Of a stretch of DNA of 64,000 nucleotides, positions 19,136-33,453 are shown piece after piece. The notes under the pieces were generated by a model. That model saw nothing but the letters and a program-made list of their open reading frames with translations. It made no database searches and was not told where the DNA came from. Every line of letters begins with the position of its first letter. Position 1 is the stretch's first letter. This stretch comes from an uncultured Chloroflexia bacterium (GTDB lineage: Bacteria; Chloroflexota; Anaerolineae; CG2-30-64-16): contig CAWEMM010000013.1 of the NCBI GenBank assembly GCA_963810095.1, positions 116,355 through 180,354 on the forward strand, given 5' to 3'. The translations under genes were made by a program, and so were the position numbers.

Positions 19136-20983
19136 ATGTGTGGGATCGTAGGTTATATCGGGCCGCGCAACGCTGCCGAAATCATCCTGGAGGGCTTGCG
19201 CCGGTTGGAATATCGCGGGTACGACTCAGCCGGGATTGCAGTGATCAGCGACGGCGAGATCGAGGTGCGCCGCGATGTCGGCAAGCTGAGCAACCTGGCG
19301 CGCTGCCTGGACGAGAGCCCGATCGCCGGGCATATTGGCGTGGGCCATACTCGCTGGGCGACGCACGGCAAGCCGAGCGAACGCAACGCACACCCGCATG
19401 CCGACTACTCGGGGCAGTTGGTCGTCGTGCAGAACGGCATCGTCGAGAACTTCCGCGAGCTGCGAGCGGAGCTGGAAGCCGAGGGCATTCCGTTCCAGTC
19501 CGAGACGGACACCGAGGTCATCGCCCACCTGATCGGGCTGCATTACCAGGCCGATACGACACTCGAGCAGGCGGTCCGGCTGGCGCTGGCCCAGCTGCGG
19601 GGACCGAGCGCAATTGTGGCTTTGTCGAAGCGCGAGCCCGGGACCTTGGTGAGCGCGCGGCTGGGCAACGCAGGCGGTGTCGCCGTCGGCTACGGCGAGG
19701 GCGAGATGTTCATCGCGTCCGACATGCCTGCCATCCTCGAGCACACCCGGCGGATGGTCTTCCTCGAAAGCCGCCAGATGGCGGTCGTGACGCAGGAGGG
19801 CGCAACCTTCTCCACGCTCGACGGCAAGGAACTGACGCCCAAGCTCCACAACATCCCCTGGGACCCGATTTCTGCTGCGAAGGGCGAGTACAAGCACTTC
19901 ATGCAGAAGGAAATCTTCGAGCAGGCGAATTCGCTTACGGACACAATTCGGGGCCGGGTGGACCTGGGCCGCGGGGAAGTGCACCTGGAGCAGTTGACCT
20001 TGGGCGAGGTCGAGGCGCGGGGGCTGACCCAGTTGGTGAGCGTTGCGTGCGGAACGAGCATGCACTCCGAACTGGTCGGCGCATTCATGTTCGAGCAACT
20101 GGCCCGGCTGCCCGTGCGGGTGGAGTACGCCTCCGAGTTTCGCTACCGGGACCCGGTGCTTGACCAGCACACGCTGATGCTGGCAATCACGCAGTCGGGC
20201 GAGACGGTGGACACGCTGGCCGCCATGGAGGAAGGCAAGGCGCACGGCGCGCACCTGGTATCGATCGTCAACGTGATCGGGAGTCAGGCGGCTCGGGTCA
20301 GCGACAGCGTCGTGTACATGCACACCGGGCCCGAGATCGGCGTCGCGTCGACCAAAGCCTTCACTGCATCTCTGGTCGACCAGTACCTGCTCGCGGTCCA
20401 GCTGGGCACGCTGCGCGGGACGCTGGACGCCGACCAGCGGCGCCGGCTGCTCGACGACCTCGCGCAGCTCCCCAACCTGGTGGGGAAGGTGCTCGACCCG
20501 GCGAATGTGGCCCAGTACGAGAAGCTGGCCCAAACGTTCTTCCACTACACCAACTTCCTCTATCTCGGCCGGGGGATAAACTTCCCCATCGCGCTGGAGG
20601 GTGCGCTGAAGCTCAAGGAGATCAGCTACATCCATGCGGAGGGCTATCCGGCGGGAGAAATGAAGCATGGACCAATCGCGCTGATCGACGAGAACATGCC
20701 GGTGGTGGTCGTGGCCCCGCAGGACCGGGTGTACGACAAGATGATCAGCCAGGTGGAGCAGGTGCGGGCTCGTGGCGGCATCGTGATCGCCGTTGCCACC
20801 GAGGGCGACGACTTCATCGCCACCAAGGCCCAGCACGTGATCACCGTACCGAAGACGTCGGAGATGCTGACGCCGGTGCTGACCGTGATCCCGCTGCAGC
20901 TGCTGGCGTACTACATGGCCGTGCGGCGGGGCGCGGATGTGGATCAGCCGCGGAACCTGGCGAAGAGCGTGACGGTGGAGTAG
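19136..20983 (+). CDS. glmS: Glutamine--fructose-6-phosphate transaminase
   Basis: MCGIVG N-terminus, LEYRGYDSAG, HTRWATHG, PRNLAKSVTVE C-terminus. Confidence 0.98.
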   Translation: MCGIVGYIGPRNAAEIILEGLRRLEYRGYDSAGIAVISDGEIEVRRDVGKLSNLARCLDESPIAGHIGVGHTRWATHGKPSERNAHPHADYSGQLVVVQNGIVENFRELRAELEAEGIPFQSETDTEVIAHLIGLHYQADTTLEQAVRLALAQLRGPSAIVALSKREPGTLVSARLGNAGGVAVGYGEGEMFIASDMPAILEHTRRMVFLESRQMAVVTQEGATFSTLDGKELTPKLHNIPWDPISAAKGEYKHFMQKEIFEQANSLTDTIRGRVDLGRGEVHLEQLTLGEVEARGLTQLVSVACGTSMHSELVGAFMFEQLARLPVRVEYASEFRYRDPVLDQHTLMLAITQSGETVDTLAAMEEGKAHGAHLVSIVNVIGSQAARVSDSVVYMHTGPEIGVASTKAFTASLVDQYLLAVQLGTLRGTLDADQRRRLLDDLAQLPNLVGKVLDPANVAQYEKLAQTFFHYTNFLYLGRGINFPIALEGALKLKEISYIHAEGYPAGEMKHGPIALIDENMPVVVVAPQDRVYDKMISQVEQVRARGGIVIAVATEGDDFIATKAQHVITVPKTSEMLTPVLTVIPLQLLAYYMAVRRGADVDQPRNLAKSVTVE

Positions 20984-21083
20984 GGGCCGGCCGGCTCCGC
21001 TCTTCAGAACCGGCCCGTGGAGACGGGACGGAACCCAGCCCGGCGCACGGCGCGTTGCGGCTGTTCATTCTTCAGTCAGTGAT

Positions 21084-21117
21084 CTCCTGGCGACACGGGG
21101 AGCTGTGTCGCCAGGAG
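21084..21117. terminator. Strong hairpin between convergent genes (probable terminator)
   Basis: Perfect 13-bp stem CTCCTGGCGACAC/GTGTCGCCAGGAG, no clear U tract. Confidence 0.55.
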
Positions 21118-21143
21118 CAGGCTGTTGTGATTCCCGACCCGCG

Positions 21144-22673
21144 CTACTCCACCACGAACACCGCGTCCGACATGCTGGCGATGCATGCCGCGTCGGGCGC
21201 GCGGTATGGGTCCTGGAGGAATTGCGATTGGATCGAGGTCCAACAGCGGCTGAGGAAGCCATCCGTGTGCCCCATGCTCGGAAACACGTACCGGAAAGCA
21301 TGCGGCAAGCCCCGGGCGGCGACCTCGCCGAACGCGGGTGGTGTGCCCGAGTCGAGTTCACCCGACAGGATCAGCACCGGAACCTCAGTCTGCACATGCC
21401 CTTCCAGGGCGACGTGCGGCACCTTCCATACTCCGCACACGTCGCCCATATCCATGAACTCGTCGAGGACGTCTGAGGCGATGCTTTCGGGTAGCTCGCG
21501 GGCCGCGGCGATCATTCCCGCCCGCGTCGGATTGGACCACTCCTCCGCGCATTCCACAGAGTAGTGCATGCCCCAGCTCGTGGTTTCGCCCGGCTCGCCC
21601 GCCGACTGCACTTCGCCCAGCTTCTGCAGCAGCCGATAGTCACGGCGGTAAGTGTTGTGAATCAGCATGGGCAGCCAGCGGATGGTCGAAACGTCGAACA
21701 TTGCATTCCAGGTCAGCTCAAGGAAGTCGCCGCCGTCGAAATGGCCGCCCCCGGGCACGGGGAGCGGCGTCCGGTCGAGCTGCTCGATCAGCCCGTAGAA
21801 GTCCGCCTTGATGTCCGGATAGGACCTCCGACACGCCGGGTCCGTCTCGCAGTGGGCGAAGAGGGCATCGAGTTGGTGCGCGTACTCTCGCACAGTGTCG
21901 ACGTACCAGTTCAGTTCAGGCGGAACGACGCTGTCGAGGACGACCGCCCGCACGTGGTCGCCGTAACCCCGCAGCACCTCGTAAGCGAGGCGGGTGCCGT
22001 ATGAGCCGCCGACCAGGTTGATCTGTTCGAAGCCCAGGGCCCGGCGGACGTCGTCCACGTCCGCGGCATTTTCCAACGTGTTGTACGCCGAGAGGTCTCT
22101 TCCCGCTTTGACCAGCCGTTCGTAGCAATCCTCATAATCCTCGCCATGACACTTCAGCGACGGCTCGGAGTACCCCGCCCCTCGTTGATCGAACAGGACC
22201 AGGGGGCGCTGTGCCAGGTCGCCGACCCAGAGGTCCATGGCCGCTCGAAACTCCAGCCGGTCCCGCAACTGCCCCTCATACTCGGGCGGGGGATAGCCTT
22301 GTGTTTTCAGCTTGTCATAATCTTGAAACAGGGCCACCATGAGGCTGATCACATCCTGGCCCGGGCCCCCGCCGAGTAGGAACGTTGGCTCGCCGCGCGG
22401 CCCACTGCCGGCTTGCCGCAGCACCATCACTGCGAGGCGGATAGAGCCGCTATCGGGTTTGCTACGGTTTTCCGGCACCGAGACGAAGCCGCAGCTGGCA
22501 GTTAGGCCGGTCGGGAGCGAGCCCCAGCACGGCGCCGGTTGACAGGCGGCAGAGGTCGTCCCGGCCGGAGCAGGCTGCAGAGTCGTGGCGACGGCAGCTT
22601 TCGGCACGGCAGCCGGCTGGCAGCCCGCGAGCAAAACGAGGACGAGAGCAGCAAAGCAAGGGAAACGATGCAC
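21144..22673 (-). CDS. Lipoprotein alpha/beta hydrolase with TAP-like C-terminus
   Basis: Lipobox LLAGC, GGGPG, DQRGAG, GGSYGT nucleophile, late D and H residues; AAGGAG RBS before GTG. Confidence 0.85.
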   Translation of the reverse strand: MHRFPCFAALVLVLLAGCQPAAVPKAAVATTLQPAPAGTTSAACQPAPCWGSLPTGLTASCGFVSVPENRSKPDSGSIRLAVMVLRQAGSGPRGEPTFLLGGGPGQDVISLMVALFQDYDKLKTQGYPPPEYEGQLRDRLEFRAAMDLWVGDLAQRPLVLFDQRGAGYSEPSLKCHGEDYEDCYERLVKAGRDLSAYNTLENAADVDDVRRALGFEQINLVGGSYGTRLAYEVLRGYGDHVRAVVLDSVVPPELNWYVDTVREYAHQLDALFAHCETDPACRRSYPDIKADFYGLIEQLDRTPLPVPGGGHFDGGDFLELTWNAMFDVSTIRWLPMLIHNTYRRDYRLLQKLGEVQSAGEPGETTSWGMHYSVECAEEWSNPTRAGMIAAARELPESIASDVLDEFMDMGDVCGVWKVPHVALEGHVQTEVPVLILSGELDSGTPPAFGEVAARGLPHAFRYVFPSMGHTDGFLSRCWTSIQSQFLQDPYRAPDAACIASMSDAVFVVE

Positions 22674-22887
22674 ACGTTCTCCTTGCACGACGGCGCGGCG
22701 CTTCTCCACCAACTCCTGGCGGAGATCGAACCGCCGTCGCTAACCGGCGTGCTGAACGTCACTACGTCAAAGCCCACCGCTCGGTAGCGGGCAGGCGTCG
22801 AATGTGACCTGGAACGTGCGCGCTGCGTCCACCGCTAGCACGCCGTGCTCGACGCGAGTTGCGGGGCGGCGAGGTCCGGCGCCGGTT

Positions 22888-24031
22888 CTAGTGGACCGCC
22901 GGCTCGATGTAGGTTTCGATCAGGTAGTAGATCGGGTCGTGGTTGGGCAGGTTCGCGCGGATCGCGACCACGAGGTCCTTCTCCGGGTTGACGTAGATTG
23001 TCTGGCCAAAGCGCCCCAGGGCCATGTACGCGGGGAACTTGGGGTGCGTCCACCACTGGTAGCCATAACCGTTGGCGTTGTCCGTCGTAGTGTGCTTCGC
23101 GGTGGCCGCCTGCACCCACTCGGGCGTCGCGATCTGCTCCCCATCCCATACGCCCCCGCGGAGGAACAGGTACCCCAGCTTGGCCATTTCCCGGGCCGTC
23201 AACTGGAGCCCCCAGCCACCCAGCGCAACCCCGTCGCGGCCAGGCATCCAGTACGCCTCGGTGATCCCCAAGGGGCTCAACAGCTCCTGCTGGGCAAAAT
23301 CCTGCGCCTTCATGCCCGTCACCTTACTCACAAGCGTGGTCAGCAGGTGCGAGCACCCCGAGCAATAGTTGAAGTCGGTGCCCGGCGCCGCCGCCATCGG
23401 ACGATCGAGCATGAACTTCATCGGGTCGCTTGACGAGTAGAACGCGCTCAGTGTGGCATCATCATCTGTCCATACCAGCCCCGTCCGCATGGTCAGCACG
23501 TCTTCCAGCGTCATCGCCCGTTTGCGGTCGTCCACGTTTTCGTAAGCGCCCGGCAGCAAGTCCAGGATCTTGGCATGCAGGTCGGTGAGGAAGCCTTTGC
23601 GCTGTGCGATGCCAACCAGGGTGGATGCGAAGCTTTTGGTCACCGAGTACACCTCGCCGCGGCTCGTGGGACCCTGGCCCACCGCGTACTGCTCGAACAC
23701 GATGTATCCGTCACGCACCACGACCACGCTCTTGACGTCCAATCCCTTCAGCCGGACGTAATCCATCATCGCGGACAGCCGCCCCGCATCGACATGCATG
23801 CGCTGCGGGTCCGTCGGTCTGCCAGCCCTGCGTCGGCCAGTAGCCGGCCTGGGGCCGCGGCGCTCCGGGCTGAAGGGTCACGGCCGGCGCGGGCTGGGCT
23901 GCGTCAGGTGCGGGGGGAGCGAGCGGGGCTGTGCGATTCGCCTGGCATGCGGCGAGTAACGCAAGCACCAGCAGGATCAGCACGGCGAGTAAGGCGGCGC
24001 GGACGAGTGGGCTGGGCGTAATGGCTGGCAT
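22888..24031 (-). CDS. Lipoprotein serine hydrolase (beta-lactamase class C-like family), frameshifted near 23800
   Basis: Lipobox LLAAC and YWPTQGW in one frame; SVTKS, FNYCSG, YGYQWW, ALGRFGQ in another. Confidence 0.85.
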
Positions 24032-24161
24032 GGTGTCGCTCCGTGAGGTTAGCATCTATCTGTAAAAGCTCTGGCCGATTTCCGACGGCCGCGAGGCCCC
24101 GCCAACGAGTGTACTCCATTCTACCACCAGAATGGTGGCTCGCCTCAACCAATAAATGCTA

Positions 24162-24191
24162 TTGACTATTGGGGATAAGTTCGGCTACAAT
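24162..24191 (+). promoter_or_regulatory. Putative sigma70 promoter for the clostripain-CHAT operon
   Basis: TTGACT-18 bp-TACAAT; GGAGG RBS downstream. Confidence 0.6.
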
Positions 24192-24223
24192 AACGTGGTG
24201 TGGCAACCCGAATGGAGGAAGAG

Positions 24224-25516
24224 ATGAGCGCGCCCAAATCTCGCTCTTGGACGATCATGGTCTACATGGCCGGCGACAACGGCAAGGTGTTCCATACGAC
24301 TGCCGGTCCAATCCGGCTGATGGCCGAAATGACCAGCGCGGGCTACAAGGATATCTGGAAGATGGGCCAGGTGGGTTCGACCCCCGCGGCCGCAGTGACG
24401 TGCCTGTTTGACACGCTGCACGGTTCCTACCTGGTGGAGGTGCGCAAGGGCAACGGCATGGCCAACAGCGTGGTCCAGGCGCTGCCTGCGGTTAACATGG
24501 GCGACCCTGAGAACCTGCGCGATTTCATCATCCGTTCGATGACGAGCTATCCTGCCGAGCGCTATGCGCTGGTGTTGTGGAACCACGGGCTCGGCTGGCT
24601 CGACGTGGACATCTACGCGCATGTCAGGCACGAGCCGGGGATGACCCCGAAGAGCGCTTCCGGTCATGCCCCAGTGTTCCGCTCGACGCCCGCCCGCATG
24701 AGCGGCGGCGAGCAGACGCGACCGATCGCGTTCGACGACACGAGCAAGGACTTCCTGGACACCGAAGGGCTGCGCCGGGCGCTCTCCGAGGCGGCGACTG
24801 CAACCGGCCACCGTCTCGACCTCATCGGCATGGACGCCTGCCTGATGGCGATGATCGAAGGCGCCCGCGAGCTCCAGCCCTTTGCCGATTATTTCGTCGC
24901 CTCACAGGAAGTGGAACCGATGGACGGCTGGCCCTATGCAGCCATCCTCAAGGCGATCAATGCGCGGCCGCTCATGGCGCCCGCGGAGTTGGCGCAGGTG
25001 GTTGTGGACGAGTACGCCGCGGGTTATAATGGCAAGACACGCGCGGCTGAGGAAGACCCGGTTACCCAGTCGGCCATCGTGACGGCCAACACCGAGGTGA
25101 CCGAACAGCTGGCGCGCGAGGTGGTCGACGCGTTGATGTACGATCCGGCCCCGGCCCTCCGGACGATGGCGCAAAGGGCAGTCGACCGCACGTTGACCTT
25201 CCAGGACCGCAACTACAAGGACCTGGGCTGCTTTGCGGCCGCGCTGGCGGTCGAAGCGGCGCAGGTAACGCACCGCAGCGGGCCGCGCATCAAGGCGGCT
25301 GCGGAGGCGTTGGCGAGCCACCTTGCCTCACGAGGCGAGGGCGCGCCCGTGCTGCGGCTGGGCTTTCTGCCCACTTATCAGGGGGCCACCGGCCTATCCG
25401 TCTTCCTGCCCCGGATGCTGAGCATGGGACGGCGGGAAGAGACGATGCGGGTGTATCGGAAGCTGGTCTTCCCACAGCGGACGGGCTGGGACCGGCTGGT
25501 GGAGTGGCTCCTCTAA
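24224..25516 (+). CDS. Clostripain-family (C11) cysteine peptidase without signal peptide
   Basis: WTIMVYMAGDN, NMGDPENL, LWNHGLGW (catalytic His), GMDACLMA (catalytic Cys), ASQEVEP..GWPY, GLSVFLP. Confidence 0.92.
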   Translation: MSAPKSRSWTIMVYMAGDNGKVFHTTAGPIRLMAEMTSAGYKDIWKMGQVGSTPAAAVTCLFDTLHGSYLVEVRKGNGMANSVVQALPAVNMGDPENLRDFIIRSMTSYPAERYALVLWNHGLGWLDVDIYAHVRHEPGMTPKSASGHAPVFRSTPARMSGGEQTRPIAFDDTSKDFLDTEGLRRALSEAATATGHRLDLIGMDACLMAMIEGARELQPFADYFVASQEVEPMDGWPYAAILKAINARPLMAPAELAQVVVDEYAAGYNGKTRAAEEDPVTQSAIVTANTEVTEQLAREVVDALMYDPAPALRTMAQRAVDRTLTFQDRNYKDLGCFAAALAVEAAQVTHRSGPRIKAAAEALASHLASRGEGAPVLRLGFLPTYQGATGLSVFLPRMLSMGRREETMRVYRKLVFPQRTGWDRLVEWLL

Positions 25517-25534
25517 CAGGAACCGGGAGGCTGT

Positions 25535-27772
25535 ATGCCCTTTCGACGTGATCTCGCCGCTGCCACGCTCACTAATGTCGCGGCAGCGCTCCATGCGAAC
25601 TGGGCGCAGCTGCCGCAGACCGGGCAGGACCAGGTCAAGCGCCTGATCGACCAATACGGTCACGAGATTTTCCAGAAGAATGCGGCCAATCGCGCCGTAA
25701 GTATGGTGCGGCTGCTGGACGAAGTCGCGGTGGTTCCCGGCCTGCCGCCGTCTGTGACGGCCGCGTTAGCCGCAGGGAACGGCGAAACGACCTCAGGGTT
25801 CGTCCGCATCTCCGACGAGCAGCGCGATCAGGTATTGGACGCGTTGGTGCAGGTGTACGACGCCCGGCGGTACGACGAGCCGTACGAGCTGGCCGAACAG
25901 GTGCGCGGCCAGCTGCAGGCTGCGGCGGGGCAGTTAGATGCGAAGACGCGGCTACGTTGGCACGAACTGGACCTGGTGTACCAGGCCGGCGGGAACCCCG
26001 CCGATTATCTGGACGTGCTCACGGCCGTCCTGGGCGACCAGGCGCCGGCAGTGCGGGATATGATCAATGCGGGCAAGAGTTGGGGCGCCGTTCCCAAGTT
26101 GAGCGCAGCCAAACCGCCGCCGGCGGGCGGTGCGAAGGGCCTGGAGACGGGTGGGGATTTTGCGCTCGCCGGCCCATCCACGGGAGGCGGCCGCGGCCTC
26201 GACGAGCCATCGCCCACGCCCGTGCAGCCGGGCCCCGTCCAGGTGCAGCGCTCGGCCAACGTCTACTTCCCCAAGACCGTGCAACTCAGCCAGAAGATGA
26301 TCCCGTTGATCGTCCACATCGCCCGGGAGCAAGCCGAGCAAACCGTAAAAATCCAGCAGGGGTCAAGCGGGCTGTCGCTGACCGTGGGCGATATGAAGAT
26401 CTTCGTGCTGACCGCCGACTTCACCGTCGAGCGCGCGATCGGCGGGCGCGAGATCGAGGACGTGGAGTACGGGCGTATCGTGCGGGTGAGCCCGGAGGCC
26501 GACTCGGAGCCTCTTGTCTTCTTCCTCTCGCCCACCTCCGCAGGCGAGAAGCGCATCAGCATCGAATTCAAGCAGTCAGGCAAGCGCATCGGGTCCCTGG
26601 CGTTCGACGTTGCCGTGATCGAAGAGGCTGTGCCCGCGACCCGACTGGCCGGCGTCATGGACGGTCAGCCGCCGTTCCTCGTCTCTGCGGCCGGAACGAC
26701 CGGCGCGGCTCCTATCGCCGTGCCCGACCTTGACCTGCGCGTGCTTGTGGAAGGCAAGACGCTGAGCTACGTCCTGAGCTCGGCCGACGGCAAGTACGAC
26801 GAGAAGAAGCTCGGCTCGAAGGTGCTCCTGATCGACCCCGCGCCGTTCTTTGCGAACATCACGCAGCAGCTGAGCGACCTGGCCGCCCGGAGGCCCGAGT
26901 ATCGCACCGGCGACGACAAGGCTCTCCCGGGCCAGTTGGGCGCCCAGCTTTGGGATCAACTGGCTTCCGACGAGTTGCGCGGGGTCTACAAGGACGACCT
27001 GCGGGTGAACTACTCTGGGAAGAGCCTCAAAATTACCACCGACGAGCCGTGGATTCCGTGGGAGATGCTGCGGCCGGTGGAGCTCGAGAACGGGGCCTTC
27101 GTCGTCGACGATTCGCCCCTCTGCGAGACGTTCCGCCTCACCCGCTGGCTGGACGGCCGGGGCGCGCCCGAGCGTGTGCAGGTGAAGGCGGGAGTCATCG
27201 TGGCGCCCCCCGAGGACACGCTGCCCTCCGTCCTAGAGGAACTGGCCTACTTCAAAGCCTTGCCCTGGTTTGCCGCACTTCGTACCAAGGATGAGGTCAA
27301 CCGGGCGCTGAGTGCCGGCGCGGGAGACCTCTTCCACTTCTCGTGTCACGGTGGGGTGGATCCAAACGATGCCTGGCTCAAGCTTGGCGACGACTATCTA
27401 AAGGCAAGCAGCATCTTGTACGGCCGGGACGTGAATCTCTCGATGGCGTTCATTTTCCTCAACGCCTGCGAGGCAGGGCAGGCCAACCTGACCATCACCG
27501 GGCTGGGCGGCTGGGCACAGGCTTTCCTCCGCCGCTATGCGAGCGTCTTCATCGGGTCGCTCTGGTCGATCAACGATGCGCTGGCCTCGCGCTTCGCGCG
27601 CGCCTTCTACGATGCGCTGCTGGGGCTGAACGGGCAGGAGGCTCAGACGGTCGGCGTGGCGTTTCAGGCCGCCCGGCAGGCGATCAAGGCGCTGGACCCC
27701 GACAATCCCACATGGCTGGCGTACGTCCTCTACGGCGACCCCAACGGCCGGGTGGTCGTGGAGACGAAATAG
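25535..27772 (+). CDS. CHAT-domain (caspase-like) protein with uncharacterised N-terminal domains
   Basis: IPWEML, FHFSCHG (His), FLNACEAG (Cys), IGSLWSIND, WLAYVLYGDP; 18 bp after clostripain with GGGAGG RBS. Confidence 0.9.
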   Translation: MPFRRDLAAATLTNVAAALHANWAQLPQTGQDQVKRLIDQYGHEIFQKNAANRAVSMVRLLDEVAVVPGLPPSVTAALAAGNGETTSGFVRISDEQRDQVLDALVQVYDARRYDEPYELAEQVRGQLQAAAGQLDAKTRLRWHELDLVYQAGGNPADYLDVLTAVLGDQAPAVRDMINAGKSWGAVPKLSAAKPPPAGGAKGLETGGDFALAGPSTGGGRGLDEPSPTPVQPGPVQVQRSANVYFPKTVQLSQKMIPLIVHIAREQAEQTVKIQQGSSGLSLTVGDMKIFVLTADFTVERAIGGREIEDVEYGRIVRVSPEADSEPLVFFLSPTSAGEKRISIEFKQSGKRIGSLAFDVAVIEEAVPATRLAGVMDGQPPFLVSAAGTTGAAPIAVPDLDLRVLVEGKTLSYVLSSADGKYDEKKLGSKVLLIDPAPFFANITQQLSDLAARRPEYRTGDDKALPGQLGAQLWDQLASDELRGVYKDDLRVNYSGKSLKITTDEPWIPWEMLRPVELENGAFVVDDSPLCETFRLTRWLDGRGAPERVQVKAGVIVAPPEDTLPSVLEELAYFKALPWFAALRTKDEVNRALSAGAGDLFHFSCHGGVDPNDAWLKLGDDYLKASSILYGRDVNLSMAFIFLNACEAGQANLTITGLGGWAQAFLRRYASVFIGSLWSINDALASRFARAFYDALLGLNGQEAQTVGVAFQAARQAIKALDPDNPTWLAYVLYGDPNGRVVVETK

Positions 27773-27778
27773 GGGCGT

Positions 27779-27872
27779 TCACCACTAAGGCACAAAGACA
27801 CAAAGGCGCGGAGGCGGCGAGTGTGAGAAGCGGCTCTTCGTGAATCTTGGCGTCTTCGTGTCTTGGTGGTAA
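27779..27872. repeat. Intergenic 9-nt-periodic palindrome, flavour A, copy 5
   Basis: ACCACTAAGGCACAAAGACACAAAG..CTTGGCGTCTTCGTGTCTTGGTGGT. Confidence 0.8.
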
Positions 27873-27919
27873 GGGGTTGCCTTCGCTCCCCGGCCAATTC
27901 TCCGGTATAATACCGCCCC

Positions 27920-30550
27920 ATGACCACACCTATGCGCAGCCAGTACCTGGCGCTCAAGAAACAGTATCCCGACATCATCCTGCTCTTCCGCCTCGGCGAT
28001 TTCTACGAGACCTTCGACGACGACGCCAAGATCGTTTCCAGCGTGTGTGATGTCGTCCTCACGTCGCGGCCGGTGGGCAACGACGAGCGCGTGCCCTTGG
28101 CGGGGGTGCCCTACCACGCCGTCGACAACTACATCGCCAAGCTCATTGGTGCCGGTTATCGTGTAGCCATCGCAGAGCAGATCGGGACGGAGCCGCCGAA
28201 GGGTGAGAAGATCGTCCCCCGGGTCGTGCGGCGGGTGGTCACCGCGGGCACGCTGGTCGAGCCGGCACTGCTGCCCGAGAAGCGTAACAACTACGTGGCG
28301 GCGCTGGTGCTGGCGCCCAACCCGGCGGCGCCCGCTGCTGCGGGGGTGGCGTTTGCCGACATCAGCACCGGCGAGTTCGCGGTCTGCGAGCTTGCGGATG
28401 GTGGCGACGTGCTGCGGCAGGCGGCCGAAGAGTTGAGCCGCTTGAGCCCGGCCGAGGTGCTGCATCCGGCCAAGGACCCGCGTTGGGCCAAGCGCACGTC
28501 AGACGGGCAGGGCAGCCCACCGGGCGACGCCATCCCGGCCTTCCTGGATGCCTACCATGTCACGCCCTACGCGGCCTGGCGCTTCGAGGAGAGCACCGGG
28601 CGGGCGGCACTCCTCGAGCACTTTCGGGCAGCTACACTGGACGGGTTCGGCTGCGAGGGGAAGCCGCTGGCGGTGCGGGCAGCAGGCGCGCTGCTGCAGT
28701 ACCTGCAGGAGACGCAGAAGGAGGGCCTGCCCCAGCTTGCCGGCCTGCGCACCTACACCCTCGGCGAGTTCATGACGCTGGACGAGGCCACCCGGCGCAA
28801 CCTGGAGCTGACCGAGACAATCCGGGGCGGCTCGGCGCAGGGGTCGCTGCTCGGCGTGCTTGACGCTACGCTGACCCCAATGGGTGGGCGCCTGCTGCGG
28901 CGCTGGCTGGGGCAGCCCCTGCTGGACGCCGCGGCACTCGAAAGGCGGCTGGACGGGGTCGAATCCTGGCACGCGGATGCCATCCGCCGTGCCGAGCTGC
29001 GCGAGCTGCTGCGCGGGTTGGGCGACCTGGAGCGGTGGACGAACCGCTGCGTGCAGGGCATTGCGCTGCCCCGTGACCTGGTCGGCATCCGGGAGGCGCT
29101 GGGACGGGTAGAGCGCGTGGGCGGCCTCCTCGATGCGGAGACTGACCCGCTCGACGCCTGCCCGACCCTCGCTCGCCTCCTCTCTGAAGCCATCGGCGAC
29201 GATCCACCCGCCACGCTGTCGACGTCTGGCGTGATCCGGCCAGGTTTTTCCGCCGAGCTGGACGGCATTCACCTCGCGACGCGCGACGCGAAAAGCTGGA
29301 TCGCCAACCTCGAATCCGTCGAGCGCGCACGGACCGGCATTAGGTCGCTCAAGGTGGGGTACAACCGGGTCTTTGGCTATTATATCGAGGTGACGCAGGC
29401 CAATTCTGCGCTGGTCCCGGCGGACTACATCCGTAAGCAAACCCTCGTCAATGCCGAGCGCTACATCACGCCCGATCTCAAGGAGTACGAGGCGCTGGTG
29501 TTGAACGCCGAGGAGAGGGTGCTCGAGCTGGAGGGTCAGCTCTACCGCGACGTGTTGGCTCAAGTTGCAGCCGGGGCCAGCCAGCTCCTGCACACGGCGG
29601 GCCGGCTCGCCGAACTCGACGTACACTCCAGCCTTGCCGAGGTCGCCGAGGCTAACAAGTACGTGCGCCCGACCCTGGCCGAGGACGGGGCCATAGACAT
29701 CCGCGGGGGGCGGCACCCGGTGGTGGAGCGGATGCTGGCGGACGGCGCGTCCTTCACGCCAAACGACGCGCATCTGTCGCCCGAGCAGGCGATCGTCGTG
29801 CTCACCGGGCCGAACATGGCCGGCAAGTCGACGTGGATTCGCCAGGTGGCGATGATCGTGCTGATGGCGCAAATTGGGTCGTTCGTCCCGGCCGACTCCG
29901 CGCGGATCGGGCTCGTGGATCGCATCTTCACCCGCATCGGCGCGTCGGATGAGATCGCGCGCGGCCAATCCACATTCATGGTGGAGATGGTGGAAACCGC
30001 CAATATCCTCCACCACGCTACCAGCCAGTCCCTGCTGATCCTGGACGAGATCGGCCGGGGCACGAGCACGTACGACGGGCTTGCGATCGCGTGGGCGGTC
30101 GTCGAGTACATCCACAACCACCCGGGCCTGCGCGCCAAGACGCTTTTCGCCACGCACTACCACGAGTTGACCGACCTGGCCGAGCGGCTGCCCCACGTGG
30201 TGAACTTCAACGTGGCCGTGGCCGAGCAGGGGGATACGGTGGCCTTCCTGCACAAGATCGTTCCCGGCGCGGCCGATCGTTCCTACGGGGTCCACGTGGC
30301 CCAACTGGCGGGGATGCCGCGGCCGGTGGTCACCCGCGCACAGGAGATCCTGGCCGACCTGGAGGCATCCGGCGCGGCGGGCCCGCGGCGTTCCACGCTG
30401 GGCCAGCCGGTGCTCTTCCAACTCCCGCTCTTCTCGTCCGAGGACCCGGTCATCGCGGAACTGAAGGTGCTCGACGTCAATGCGCTGAGCCCGCTCGCCG
30501 CGCTGAACAAGCTCTACGAGCTGCAGCAGCGGGCCAAGAAGGGGGAGTAA
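27920..30550 (+). CDS. mutS: DNA mismatch repair protein MutS
   Basis: TPMRSQY, GDFYETF, TGPNMAGKST, STFMVEM, DEIGRGTST, FATHYHEL; TATAAT 8 bp upstream and no SD, suggesting leaderless mRNA. Confidence 0.98.
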   Translation: MTTPMRSQYLALKKQYPDIILLFRLGDFYETFDDDAKIVSSVCDVVLTSRPVGNDERVPLAGVPYHAVDNYIAKLIGAGYRVAIAEQIGTEPPKGEKIVPRVVRRVVTAGTLVEPALLPEKRNNYVAALVLAPNPAAPAAAGVAFADISTGEFAVCELADGGDVLRQAAEELSRLSPAEVLHPAKDPRWAKRTSDGQGSPPGDAIPAFLDAYHVTPYAAWRFEESTGRAALLEHFRAATLDGFGCEGKPLAVRAAGALLQYLQETQKEGLPQLAGLRTYTLGEFMTLDEATRRNLELTETIRGGSAQGSLLGVLDATLTPMGGRLLRRWLGQPLLDAAALERRLDGVESWHADAIRRAELRELLRGLGDLERWTNRCVQGIALPRDLVGIREALGRVERVGGLLDAETDPLDACPTLARLLSEAIGDDPPATLSTSGVIRPGFSAELDGIHLATRDAKSWIANLESVERARTGIRSLKVGYNRVFGYYIEVTQANSALVPADYIRKQTLVNAERYITPDLKEYEALVLNAEERVLELEGQLYRDVLAQVAAGASQLLHTAGRLAELDVHSSLAEVAEANKYVRPTLAEDGAIDIRGGRHPVVERMLADGASFTPNDAHLSPEQAIVVLTGPNMAGKSTWIRQVAMIVLMAQIGSFVPADSARIGLVDRIFTRIGASDEIARGQSTFMVEMVETANILHHATSQSLLILDEIGRGTSTYDGLAIAWAVVEYIHNHPGLRAKTLFATHYHELTDLAERLPHVVNFNVAVAEQGDTVAFLHKIVPGAADRSYGVHVAQLAGMPRPVVTRAQEILADLEASGAAGPRRSTLGQPVLFQLPLFSSEDPVIAELKVLDVNALSPLAALNKLYELQQRAKKGE

Positions 30551-30611
30551 CGCATTTGTTCTATTGGCGCGACGGCGACCGGATGGTATAATTCACCCAC
30601 GAGGTGATGCC

Positions 30612-31184
30612 ATGCTGCGGGCGAGAAAGACAAAGTTTTCCCAGGAAGAGTACCTCGCGATGGAAGAGGTCGCACAGTACAAGAGCGAGTTTCACCGGGG
30701 CGAGATCTTCGCGGTGTCTGGGGGCACCTACAATCACAGCGTAATTCAAGGCAATCTTGTTCGGCAACTCGGCAATCTGCTGGACTCGAAACCGTGCACG
30801 GTTGTAACGGCGGACCTGCGCATCCATATTGAAGCCGGGGACCTTTTCACGTATCCCGATGCGGCCGTGGTGTGCGGGAAGGCCCGGTTCTTTCCGAGAC
30901 GAACCGATACGATTGTGAATCCTTCGCTTATCATTGAGGTTTTGTCACCTTCGACACGTGACTATGATCGGGGTGCGAAGTTCGAGATGTACAAGCACAT
31001 CCAGAGCTTACAGGAGTATGTCCTGGTCGAAGGCGAGAAGGCGCACGTCGAGTGCTTCCGCCGTCGCGCAGGCGGCTGGACGCTGGCCGCCTTCAGCGGT
31101 ATGGATGCAAGCTGCCGTCTCGAGTCACTTGACTGTGAAATCCCGTTGAGCCGGATTTATCAGAAGGTCACCTGGCTCGAATGA
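30612..31184 (+). CDS. Uma2-family (DUF820) endonuclease-like protein
   Basis: EEYLAMEE, TYPDAAVVC, IIEVLSPSTRDYDRGAKF, LQEYVLV. Confidence 0.92.
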   Translation: MLRARKTKFSQEEYLAMEEVAQYKSEFHRGEIFAVSGGTYNHSVIQGNLVRQLGNLLDSKPCTVVTADLRIHIEAGDLFTYPDAAVVCGKARFFPRRTDTIVNPSLIIEVLSPSTRDYDRGAKFEMYKHIQSLQEYVLVEGEKAHVECFRRRAGGWTLAAFSGMDASCRLESLDCEIPLSRIYQKVTWLE

Positions 31185-31260
31185 CCCGACGCCTCGTACT
31201 TGACCGCCACGGCCCGGCACTCGTCGGGCCATTTATTTGTGTTTACGTGAGGTTCGCTTC

Positions 31261-33453
31261 TTGACCGACTCCTTTGCCCCCATCATCGCCAAAGAGCTGG
31301 GACTCTCAGCCCACTCGGTCGGCGCCACCGTCGAGCTGCTCGACGGCGGCAACACCATTCCCTTCATCGCACGCTACCGCAAGGAGGCCACGGGCGGGTT
31401 GGATGAAGTCCAGCTGCGCCAGGTGGAGGCGCGGCTGGCGTACTTGCGCAAGCTGGCCGAACGCCGAGAGGCCATCGCGACCGAGATCACGTCGCAGGGC
31501 AAGCTGACCGACGAGCTGGCGGGACAACTCGGCGCCGCGGCCACGCTCCAGGCGCTGGAAGACCTGTATCGCCCCTACAAGCCCAAGCGGCAGACCCGGG
31601 CGGCCATCGCGCGCGAGCGCGGGCTGGAACCCCTGGCCCTGGCCGTTTTGGAGCAGGATGCCAAGGCCGATCCGGCCGCGCTGGCGGGGGCGTATCTGAG
31701 CGATCAGGTGCCCGACGTGGCCGCGGCGCTGGCCGGTGCACGCGACATCATTGCGGAGCAGGTGAGCGACGATCCGAACGCCCGGCTGCTGGTGCGCCAG
31801 CGGTTCGCGGCGGACGGGTTTGTTGCCAGCCGGCGAGCAAGCGAGACGGCCGACGAGGCGGGCCGGTATCGCGTCTATTACGAGTTCCGCTGCGCGCTCC
31901 GGGCGGTGCAGCCGCACCAGTGGCTGGCCCTGACGCGGGGGGCCGCGGATGGCAGCTTGAAGGTGGAGATTACGACCCCGGACGCGGAGATGGCCGGCCA
32001 GTTGGTGCGCCGGTGGACCCGCAGCCCGGGCAGCCGTTCTGCCGAGCAGGTGCGCCTTGCGATCGAGGACGGTTACGATCGCCTCCTGCGTCCGTCGGTC
32101 GAGCGGGAGGTGAGCGGACAACTGGGTGAGTTCGCGGACGACCACGCGATCCAGGTCTTTGCCGCCAACCTGCGAAACCTGCTGCTCCAGCCGCCCCTGC
32201 ACGAGCGTGCGGTACTGGGGATCGATCCGGGCTTTCGCACCGGCTGCAAGGCTGCAACTGTAAGTCCCACCGGCAAGCTGCTGCACACCGTCACGATCTA
32301 TCCGCACGCCCCGCAGCATGAGGCTGAGAAGGCCAAAGCCGCGCTGGCCAAGCTGATCGAAATGGATGGGGTGAGCGTCATCGCGATTGGCAATGGCACG
32401 GCAAGCCGCGAGACTGAGGCCCTGGTGGCCGAGTTGATCCAGGGCGGCGGTGAGAAATCTGCCTTCTCCCACGTGGCCTATGTGATGGTGAGCGAGGCGG
32501 GCGCGTCGGTTTACTCCGCGTCGGACGTGGCGCGCGCTGAGTTCCCCGAGCTGGACGTCTCCATGCGCGGCGCAGTCTCGATCGCGCGTCGCTTGCAGGA
32601 CCCGCTTGCAGAATTGGTCAAGATCGACCCGAAGAGCATCGGCGTCGGCCTGTATCAGCACGACGTGGATCAGGGGAAGCTGGCGGCCACGCTGGACGCA
32701 GTGGTCGAATCGGTGGTGAACTACGTCGGCGTGGACGCGAACACGTCCTCTGCCCAGTTGTTGGGGTATGTCTCGGGGATCAGCAGGCGCCTGGCCGGCG
32801 CCATTGTCGGCCACCGGGACGAGAACGGGTCATTCGAGTCGCGCACCGACCTGAAGAAGGTCAAGGGGCTCGGGCCGAAGGCGTTCGAACAGGCCGCCGG
32901 CTTTCTCCGCGTGCCCGGCAGCCGAAATCCCCTGGACAACACGACGATTCACCCCGAGTCGTACAACGCGACGAAAGCGCTGCTCGAGCTTGCCGGGCTC
33001 AATCTGCGAATGAAAGACTTGCCCAATTCGCTTCGGCGGTGGTTGGCGAGCGAAGGGCTGAACCTCGATGCGCAGGGGGGCAAATGGGCGGACGTGGCAG
33101 CCTTGCTCGGGATAGGGGAACCGACGCTGCGAGACATCGTCGGTGCGCTGCTCAGGCCGGGCCGCGACCCCCGCGACGATCTGCCGCCCATGGTGCTCCG
33201 CCGCGATGTGCTGAGCATCGAAGATCTGCGCGAGGGCATGGTGCTGAAGGGCACGGTGCGCAACGTGGTCGACTTCGGCGCGTTTGTGGATATTGGCGTG
33301 AAGCAGGACGGACTCGTGCACATCAGCAAGATGGGCAAGAAGTTCGTGCGTAACCCGCATGAAGTGCTCGGGGTCGGCGATGTAGTTGACGTAACCGTCG
33401 TGGGCATCGACCGTGAGCGCGGGCGGATCGGGCTGGCGATGGTGCAGGAGTAG
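31261..33453 (+). CDS. tex: Tex transcription accessory protein (YqgF-like, HhH, S1)
   Basis: TIPFIARYRKE, GIDPGFRTGCK, SEAGASVYS, DFGAFVDIG. Confidence 0.96.
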   Translation: MTDSFAPIIAKELGLSAHSVGATVELLDGGNTIPFIARYRKEATGGLDEVQLRQVEARLAYLRKLAERREAIATEITSQGKLTDELAGQLGAAATLQALEDLYRPYKPKRQTRAAIARERGLEPLALAVLEQDAKADPAALAGAYLSDQVPDVAAALAGARDIIAEQVSDDPNARLLVRQRFAADGFVASRRASETADEAGRYRVYYEFRCALRAVQPHQWLALTRGAADGSLKVEITTPDAEMAGQLVRRWTRSPGSRSAEQVRLAIEDGYDRLLRPSVEREVSGQLGEFADDHAIQVFAANLRNLLLQPPLHERAVLGIDPGFRTGCKAATVSPTGKLLHTVTIYPHAPQHEAEKAKAALAKLIEMDGVSVIAIGNGTASRETEALVAELIQGGGEKSAFSHVAYVMVSEAGASVYSASDVARAEFPELDVSMRGAVSIARRLQDPLAELVKIDPKSIGVGLYQHDVDQGKLAATLDAVVESVVNYVGVDANTSSAQLLGYVSGISRRLAGAIVGHRDENGSFESRTDLKKVKGLGPKAFEQAAGFLRVPGSRNPLDNTTIHPESYNATKALLELAGLNLRMKDLPNSLRRWLASEGLNLDAQGGKWADVAALLGIGEPTLRDIVGALLRPGRDPRDDLPPMVLRRDVLSIEDLREGMVLKGTVRNVVDFGAFVDIGVKQDGLVHISKMGKKFVRNPHEVLGVGDVVDVTVVGIDRERGRIGLAMVQE

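Follow-up and report, generated by a model that had tools for sequence, protein, structure and literature searches.

Two adjacent genes in a stretch of 64,000 nucleotides (hereafter the window; positions 116,355 to 180,354 of contig CAWEMM010000013.1, assembly GCA_963810095.1) encode a protein of the Peptidase C11 (clostripain) family and a CHAT protein, and we tentatively propose, with a probability of roughly 0.45, that they constitute a functionally coupled, fixed two-gene module of cytoplasmic clan-CD cysteine proteases devoted to regulated intracellular proteolysis, with C11 acting upstream. The host is an Anaerolineae metagenome-assembled genome (MAG) of 6.1 Mb over 16 contigs (the focal contig being C13), and the genomes of the relatives used for comparison are likewise Anaerolineae/Chloroflexota MAGs. 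The two genes and the parts of their products on which the argument leans are the following.

24162..24191, + strand: sigma-70-like promoter TTGACT - 18 nt - TACAAT upstream of the C11 gene, matching at 10/12 positions.
24200..25516, + strand: Peptidase_C11 (clostripain-family) gene, open reading frame (ORF) from GTG 24200, 438 aa.
24584-24586, + strand: C11 catalytic His121 (NHG), invariant in 18/18 orthologues.
24626-24628, + strand: C11 loop arginine R135, invariant in 18/18 orthologues.
24719-24721, + strand: C11 loop arginine R166, within QTR-PIAFDD, invariant in 18/18 orthologues.
24833-24835, + strand: C11 Asp204 (DAC; S1 Asp), invariant in 18/18 orthologues.
24839-24841, + strand: C11 catalytic Cys206 (DAC), invariant in 18/18 orthologues.
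25517..25534, + strand: spacer of 18 nt with a GGGAGG ribosome-binding site, between TAA 25514-25516 and ATG 25535.
25535..27772, + strand: CHAT gene, ORF of 745 aa.
25535..26089, + strand: CHAT N-domain, residues 1-185, all-alpha with nine helices; AlphaFold2 pLDDT (predicted local distance difference test) 94 when folded alone.
26090..26233, + strand: CHAT disordered Pro/Gly/Ala-rich linker, residues 186-233; pLDDT 25-29, length varying among orthologues.
26249-26251, + strand: CHAT Arg239 after the linker, invariant in the alignment of 11 orthologues.
26240..26620, + strand: CHAT beta-sandwich (macroglobulin/immunoglobulin-like), residues 236-362; partial Foldseek matches to the macroglobulin domains of complement C3/C5.
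26729..27772, + strand: CHAT protease domain, residues 399-745 plus stop, with His605 at 27347-27349 and Cys645 at 27467-27469; assigned by Pfam and Foldseek.

The initial annotation, made from the sequence alone, had described two genes 18 bp apart behind their own promoter, with intact His/Cys dyads, neither signal peptide nor transmembrane segment, the QTR-PIAFDD motif of the clostripain in the loop downstream of its catalytic His, and no effector in view, and all of this is borne out. The promoter is the sole sigma-70-like site within 23700-28100, where shuffled sequence yields 0.3 +/- 0.5. The C11 start is likely the ATG at 24224, which lies behind GGAGG and would give a product of 430 aa; all C11 residues are numbered from it. 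The C11 protein matches Pfam PF03415 Peptidase_C11 (clan CD) with E 2.8e-39 (136.1 bits, cut-off 25.8) and has 6n9j, 6mzo, 3uws, and 9cip as relatives in the PDB, and its 26.8 bits against the NCBIfam clostripain equivalog TIGR02806 (cut-off 550) place it outside clostripain proper. The CHAT protein matches Pfam PF12770 over residues 554-735 (E 2.3e-13, 50.7 bits, cut-off 24), with an additional weaker match to Peptidase_C25, and its His605 (CHG) and Cys645 (NAC) are invariant in 11/11 orthologues. No signal peptide or transmembrane segment was found in either protein, the maximal Kyte-Doolittle means over 19 residues being 1.08 (C11) and 1.25 (CHAT), and the in-frame stops directly ahead of both ORFs (ending at 24193 and 25516) make an upstream signal peptide impossible. 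All C11 orthologues begin a few residues ahead of the first strand, WT[ILMF]MVYMAGDN.

The pair recurs well beyond this genome, a point on which the initial annotation had staked its own proposal. Full-length CHAT orthologues were sought in 41 related genomes and found within the same family, where 11 loci were retrieved; in 11/11 of them a C11 gene lies directly upstream on the same strand, and mutS follows within 1.5 kb in 9/11. Considering the 25 genomes of the family, including the focal one, 18 have both genes, four have C11 alone, and in three neither was found (G010, G011, and G024). A broader survey at the species level took the best 80 of 291 GTDB loci, with C11 scored as absent only where 1.5 kb or more could be seen upstream. 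Here C11 precedes CHAT in 30/80 loci and is missing from 39, the other 11 being unjudgeable (i.e., 30/69 of those that can be judged), while mutS lies on the same strand within 4 kb downstream in 58/80, about half of these at 1-41 nt. In the nearest relatives the conserved stretch extends to glmS on the upstream side and to Uma2 and tex on the downstream side, giving the order glmS-C11-CHAT-mutS-tex. This shared synteny among housekeeping genes indicates that the locus is chromosomally fixed and vertically inherited, not a mobile island, and on this point the conflict system of patchy distribution suggested in the initial annotation does not hold.

The argument for a functional link, and not only a shared address, comes from fusions and from paralogous cassettes. 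In one genome (L006, the same locus as L017) the C11 frame lacks its stop codon, and C11 and CHAT form a single protein of 1186 aa with both dyads. A second clan-CD domain was found in nine of the 88 longer C11 relatives listed, three times CHAT (P0002, P0003, and P0008) and six times Peptidase_C14, and C11 was the N-terminal partner in 6/6 fusions whose coordinates were examined. The window's own genome holds three C11 genes, ten CHAT matches, and seven C14 matches, and a CHAT gene is found within ~1 kb of C11 in two of the three cases. Across the 41 genomes, a small paralogous C11 adjoins a CHAT gene in 5/6 judgeable loci, a contig of 2.7 kb (G030:C305) having been left out as unjudgeable. 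The arrangements differ: CHAT-C14-C11 in the own genome (G000:C9), G007:C335, and G001:C21; CHAT-C11 at G015:C82; and at G017:C303 (L101 1661-5903) a C11 gene, then an ORF of 380 aa without a Pfam family, then a CHAT-Big_5-EAD7 protein. The exception is G017:C5, where the contig with the small C11 paralogue has no CHAT match. Large C11 genes (frames of at least 693 aa) had no nearby CHAT match among the 150 matches listed, with 78 further ones lying outside that set.

Some details of these sister cassettes were seen in passing. In the own-genome cassette (G000:C9:550639-553673; L098 3532-6980) CHAT, a C14-like gene, and C11 lie on one strand, the CHAT and C14 ORFs overlapping in different frames, so that a frameshift is possible, and Pfam gave no match for the five ORFs upstream of it. 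The cassette of G007:C335 (L100) has a TPR-CHAT, and that of G001:C21 is L103.

The features of the C11 protein itself are those expected of an Arg/Lys-specific zymogen of the clostripain type. His121, Asp204, and Cys206 correspond to clostripain His176, Asp229, and Cys231, Asp204 corresponding also to Asp177 of PmC11, and the Asp-x-Cys arrangement of clostripain (Asp229/Cys231) and PmC11 (Asp177) is described as the P1 determinant (PMC11296011). Since this S1 determinant is conserved, a preference for Arg/Lys is to be expected. Characterized C11 enzymes are zymogens in which the loop that follows the catalytic His is cut after a basic residue (PMC11296011, PMC10104074). In clostripain the cuts lie at Arg181 and Arg190 (PMC11296011), in globupain at K137 and, within K144|GVCWD, at K144 (PMC10104074). 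In the focal protein the loop from His121 to R166 is unusually long (45 residues vs. 12–14 in clostripain/globupain-type enzymes), and R166 stands immediately before a conserved strand, in a position equivalent to the globupain cut at K144|GVCWD. H121, D204, C206, and R166 are also kept in all seven sequences of an alignment of orthologues plus paralogues, R166 being conserved even across four C11 paralogues of 27–35% identity. Further invariants among the 18 orthologues are Phe152-Arg153 and the motif around R166, TRPIA[FY]DD. R166 is, on these grounds, the best candidate for the activation site, in agreement with the initial annotation. R135 (His+14), which by spacing could be equated with clostripain Arg190, was considered as the canonical site and set aside, the globupain motif and the conservation among paralogues favoring R166. 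It is a possible second site, and if cleavage took place at R135 too, a peptide of ~31 residues would be excised, resembling the linker of clostripain.

The CHAT protein has an architecture that would lend itself to activation by cleavage. The AlphaFold2 model (mean pLDDT 76) divides it into five regions, namely the helical N-domain, the disordered linker, the beta-sandwich, a second disordered stretch (residues 366-394), and the protease domain, whose structural relatives in Foldseek were Csx29 (E 3e-11) and separase and gingipain (E 7e-9 to 2e-7). The N-domain had no match in the PDB at E <= 0.001 and no second copy was found in its own genome, and its profile retrieved just 45 representatives among 1.84 billion proteins. 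Eight of these matches were scanned, giving five CHAT proteins (all of the full-length close matches), one weak C14 match, and two saposin-repeat proteins of eukaryotic type, which we take to be spurious; judged by these searches, the N-domain is specific to this protease family. In the species survey it was detected in 25/30 C11-linked CHAT genes vs. 2/39 unlinked ones.

Profile positions ~9-47 of the N-domain repeatedly matched the long proteins P0107, P0125, and P0132, of which P0107 and P0125, scanned with Pfam, were assigned saposin B repeats. The resemblance, that of an amphipathic helix hairpin, is probably fortuitous. We also considered the N-domain as an EAD or Death-like adaptor (Pfam EAD1-EAD8, bDLD), for which there was only an atlas lead with cosine 0.84-0.87 (<0.9) and a non-significant match to Pfam EAD1 (E 0.5 in 1/16 sequences). 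That identity was rejected as unsupported given the null Pfam result, the single genomic copy, the 45 representatives, and the lack of a PDB fold.

For the direction, trigger, and substrates of the proposed relay we infer the following series of steps. C11 would first become active through a cut in its own loop, made in cis or in trans and perhaps dependent on Ca2+ or on reduction, as in clostripain and globupain. Active C11 would then cut the CHAT protein within or beside the disordered linker, a cut that would free the N-domain and turn on the CHAT protease, which would in turn cleave substrates of its own. The role of the module would be one of regulated intracellular proteolysis, be it in stress response, cell fate, or filament turnover. 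We favor the direction from C11 to CHAT because the residues at the C11 activation site suit the specificity of C11 itself, because C11 is N-terminal in every fusion examined, and because a cut in the CHAT linker would release the family-specific N-domain. Invariant Arg239 had been considered as a cleavage site specific to C11. A predicted complex of C11 with CHAT residues 1-400 scored 0.00 (mark 0.32), which counts neither for nor against binding.

Several observations weigh against this reading, and above all against an obligate pairing. In four congeneric genomes (G002, G003, G005, and G006) the locus reads glmS-C11-mutS, the CHAT gene having been deleted, and no remnant of it was found there at the protein or DNA level. 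C11 is intact in all four and retains all key residues, with ratios of nonsynonymous to synonymous substitutions (dN/dS) of 0.09 and 0.10 within two CHAT-less pairs, and this purifying selection implies that C11 has a function independent of this CHAT protein. Conversely, Caldilineaceae have a sandwich-CHAT gene directly before mutS and no C11, the genes upstream (ThiF/rhodanese, JAB) being unrelated ones of the opposite strand, and homologues of CHAT without C11 occur also in cyanobacteria, in the archaeal Methanosarcinaceae, and in Gemmatales. Arg239 is found in the C11-less homologues of cyanobacteria and Methanosarcinaceae as well, for which it was downgraded as a C11-specific site. C11 is the last gene in the paralogous cassettes, so that gene order leaves the direction unfixed. 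The association of the N-domain with C11 is confounded by relatedness, its profile having been built from close orthologues, and the related genomes are not independent observations. Several of the assemblies are also fragmented or error-prone, with in-frame TGA stops and split genes in G001 and G008. The proteolytic cascade of the initial annotation stands as a reasonable model, argued from fusions and paralogous cassettes, for a pair that is not obligate.

One alternative that takes these observations at face value is that C11 and CHAT are independent, co-regulated cytoplasmic proteases of differing specificity, neighbors by descent, which do not process each other and serve bulk or quality-control turnover. 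Survival of either gene without the other in some lineages, the purifying selection on C11 where this CHAT protein is gone, and the stable housekeeping neighborhood are all as it would have them. Inherited order alone, however, would not lead one to expect independent fusions and the repeated adjacency of differing paralogues in differing orders, and the zymogen-like traits of both proteins (the long Arg-bearing loop of C11, and the disordered linker and removable N-domain of CHAT) also speak against it; we consider this explanation unlikely, although it deserves to be kept in sight.

Another explanation, which corresponds to the conflict system of the initial annotation and which we also hold to be rather improbable, is that the two genes make up a system of anti-phage defense or abortive infection (programmed cell death), in which an infection cue would activate C11, C11 would activate CHAT, and essential proteins would be destroyed. 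CHAT and other caspase-like proteases do operate in Craspase, SAVED-CHAT/PCaspase, and gasdermin systems. The module is dispensable (CHAT is missing from the four congeners, and neither gene was found in the three further genomes of the family mentioned above), CHAT evolves faster than C11 (36–48% vs. 53–69% sequence identity), a paralogous CHAT beside a C11 gene carries the conflict-system adaptor domain EAD7, and clan-CD proteases abound in the genome. Against this stands the fixed position among housekeeping genes, with synteny extending over the class and no variable island. Moreover, no sensor, effector, nuclease, CRISPR, SAVED, TIR, STAND, or gasdermin gene was found near the pair, whose neighbors are glmS, hydrolases, mutS, Uma2, and tex, and no candidate gasdermin ORF was seen within 20000-32000, although a gasdermin profile was not applied to every small ORF. 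The PADLOC match to SAVED_CHAT is weak (E 8.4e-5) and confined to residues 586-731, the CHAT part, which does not make the protein a SAVED-CHAT, and C11 had no PADLOC match; the N-domain, for its part, is no shared adaptor. A locus fixed among housekeeping genes, with no sensor or effector nearby, speaks against a typical defense island. The dispensability of the module, the fast evolution of CHAT, and the EAD7-bearing paralogue leave a role in defense or cell death possible. The idea in the initial annotation that the clostripain takes the place of the usual sensor was conjecture, and the present results lend it no support as regards trigger, cleavage direction, or defense role.

A more far-reaching version of the coupled module, which we regard as doubtful, would see in it an ancient, fixed clan-CD cascade without a sensor (C11-CHAT, with CHAT-C14-C11 as its sister) in filamentous Chloroflexota, working after the manner of eukaryotic initiator and executioner caspases and deciding the death or fate of cells in the filament outside phage defense. 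Its triggers could be, for instance, membrane damage with entry of Ca2+ or, in view of the adjacency of CHAT and mutS throughout the class, DNA damage. Least probable in our view is the reverse direction, with CHAT (or C14 in the sister cassette) as an initiator that cuts the His-Cys loop of C11 and C11 as a broad Arg-specific executioner, for although the cassette order CHAT-C14-C11, the upstream position of SAVED-CHAT in the only characterized bacterial cascade, the trans-activation known for C11 zymogens (PMC10104074), and the retention of C11 after loss of this CHAT (when other CHAT paralogues might serve it) would agree with it, the invariants at the C11 activation site are arginines that match the specificity of C11 and favor self-processing, and C11 is N-terminal in all six fusions examined.

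Returning to the locus around the proposed C11–CHAT module, two further features lie downstream of it.

27780..27870, strand unassigned: long hairpin with imperfect pairing, member of a dispersed palindromic repeat family, downstream of the CHAT stop and ahead of mutS.
27920..30550, + strand: mutS, the conserved downstream neighbor, with TATAAT at 27907-27912, 7 nt ahead of its ATG.

The hairpin (-69.6 kcal/mol, z -3.4) occupies much of the 147-nt gap between the CHAT stop and mutS, and a repeat query of 100 nt (27776-27875) had 43 matches across the own genome, resembling repetitive extragenic palindromic (REP) sequences or miniature inverted-repeat transposable elements (MITEs). It lies outside the module, yet it may terminate its transcript; no canonical terminator was found after the CHAT gene in the signal scan of 23700-28100. 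A TATAAT stands 7-8 nt ahead of the mutS ATG in the window (27907-27922), in a relative with CHAT (L014, 5341-5357), and in one without it (L093, ~2620-2640), which suggests that the mutS mRNA is conserved and leaderless. In the same three loci mutS has no Shine-Dalgarno sequence. With such a leaderless promoter of its own suggested for mutS, co-transcription of C11-CHAT-mutS becomes unnecessary, an operon for which the basis had been the gap of 1-41 nt in about half of the relatives with a downstream mutS. The self-contained operon of the initial annotation is plausible, although a canonical terminator was not found and mutS has its own TATAAT. The sandwich-CHAT gene immediately precedes mutS across Anaerolineales and Caldilineales in 58/80 loci, C11-less ones included (L013-L092; e.g., L044 5770-5797).

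The ORFs of 20000-32000 were surveyed, with Pfam applied to five of them (C11, CHAT, an alpha/beta hydrolase, a beta-lactamase-family protein, and Uma2), while glmS, mutS, and tex were identified through their sequence and their orthologues. The divergent hydrolase gene noted earlier beside C11 is indeed there, but is actually a gene for a beta-lactamase-family serine hydrolase and lipoprotein (22888-24055, - strand) with a frameshift near 23800, so that the part with the lipoprotein signal peptide (ORF 23711-24055) and the catalytic part (22888-23799) stand in different frames. The same gene is a single continuous ORF in the relatives L013 and L014, and the split version would be either a pseudogene or an assembly error. 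Between mutS and tex there is a Uma2-family gene (putative restriction-endonuclease-like; 30564-31184), found in the same place in L014.

The interest of the pair lies in what is established for each of the two families. To our knowledge, all characterized C11 peptidases act outside the cytoplasm, and characterized bacterial CHAT proteases are tied to CRISPR, gasdermin, or cyclic-oligonucleotide-based anti-phage signaling system (CBASS) immunity. Here we have a C11 protein without signal peptide that is recurrently paired or fused with CHAT or C14, and a focal pair that is fixed in a multicellular bacterial lineage. Should the two proteases process each other, bacteria would have a caspase-like cascade of a second, independent kind, a C11 peptidase would for the first time have a role inside the cell, and a simple two-protein system would be at hand in which to approach the origin of protease cascades before eukaryotic apoptosis. 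No paper joining C11 or clostripain with CHAT in one system was found in a literature search that left subscription journals and supplements outside, so that an earlier mention is possible.

Set against known systems, the two proteins fall within the Peptidase C11 and CHAT families, and outside Craspase, SAVED-CHAT, and EAD-adaptor systems, clostripain proper and, as far as the ORFs surveyed show, gasdermin systems. The nearest precedent is the SAVED-CHAT protease, which cleaves and activates PCaspase in a hybrid of type III-B CRISPR and CBASS, as reported by Steens et al. (bioRxiv 10.1101/2023.06.23.546230). Both systems have two adjacent genes for clan-CD proteases, one of them CHAT, and the sister cassettes described above share the pairing of CHAT with C14. 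By contrast, the focal locus has no SAVED domain and no cyclic-oligonucleotide or CRISPR genes, the partner is C11 instead of C14, the pair is fixed beside mutS, and the cleavage is here only proposed.

With clostripain, PmC11, globupain, and fragipain the C11 protein shares the His/Cys dyad, the Asp-x-Cys S1 determinant, and, in the loop that follows the His, a basic residue. Fragipain, which is described as processing the Bacteroides fragilis toxin, provides a precedent for a C11 enzyme that matures another protein (PMC8406203). Clostripain and globupain bear signal peptides (27 and 21 aa) and are extracytoplasmic, unlike the focal C11, and their loops between His and cleavage site are also much shorter, as stated above.

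Csx29, the TPR-CHAT of the type III-E Craspase, is the best structural match of the CHAT protease domain. Unlike Csx29, the CHAT protein scores 19.6 bits against NF041237 (cut-off 300), has no TPR and no genes for Cas7-11 (gRAMP), Csx30, or Csx31 nearby, and its N-terminal architecture is that of a helical domain, a linker, and a beta-sandwich. Separase and gingipains share with it the caspase-hemoglobinase fold and an adjoining beta-rich domain, but identity is just 12–15% and the substrates are unconnected, and the likeness is thus one of fold only. Finally, HetF is a chromosomal CHAT protease of filamentous cyanobacteria for which we know of no C11 partner. It is needed for heterocyst development and cell division, a developmental role and not one in defense, and, although its architecture differs, a CHAT gene inherited vertically in a multicellular filamentous bacterium may be analogous to it.

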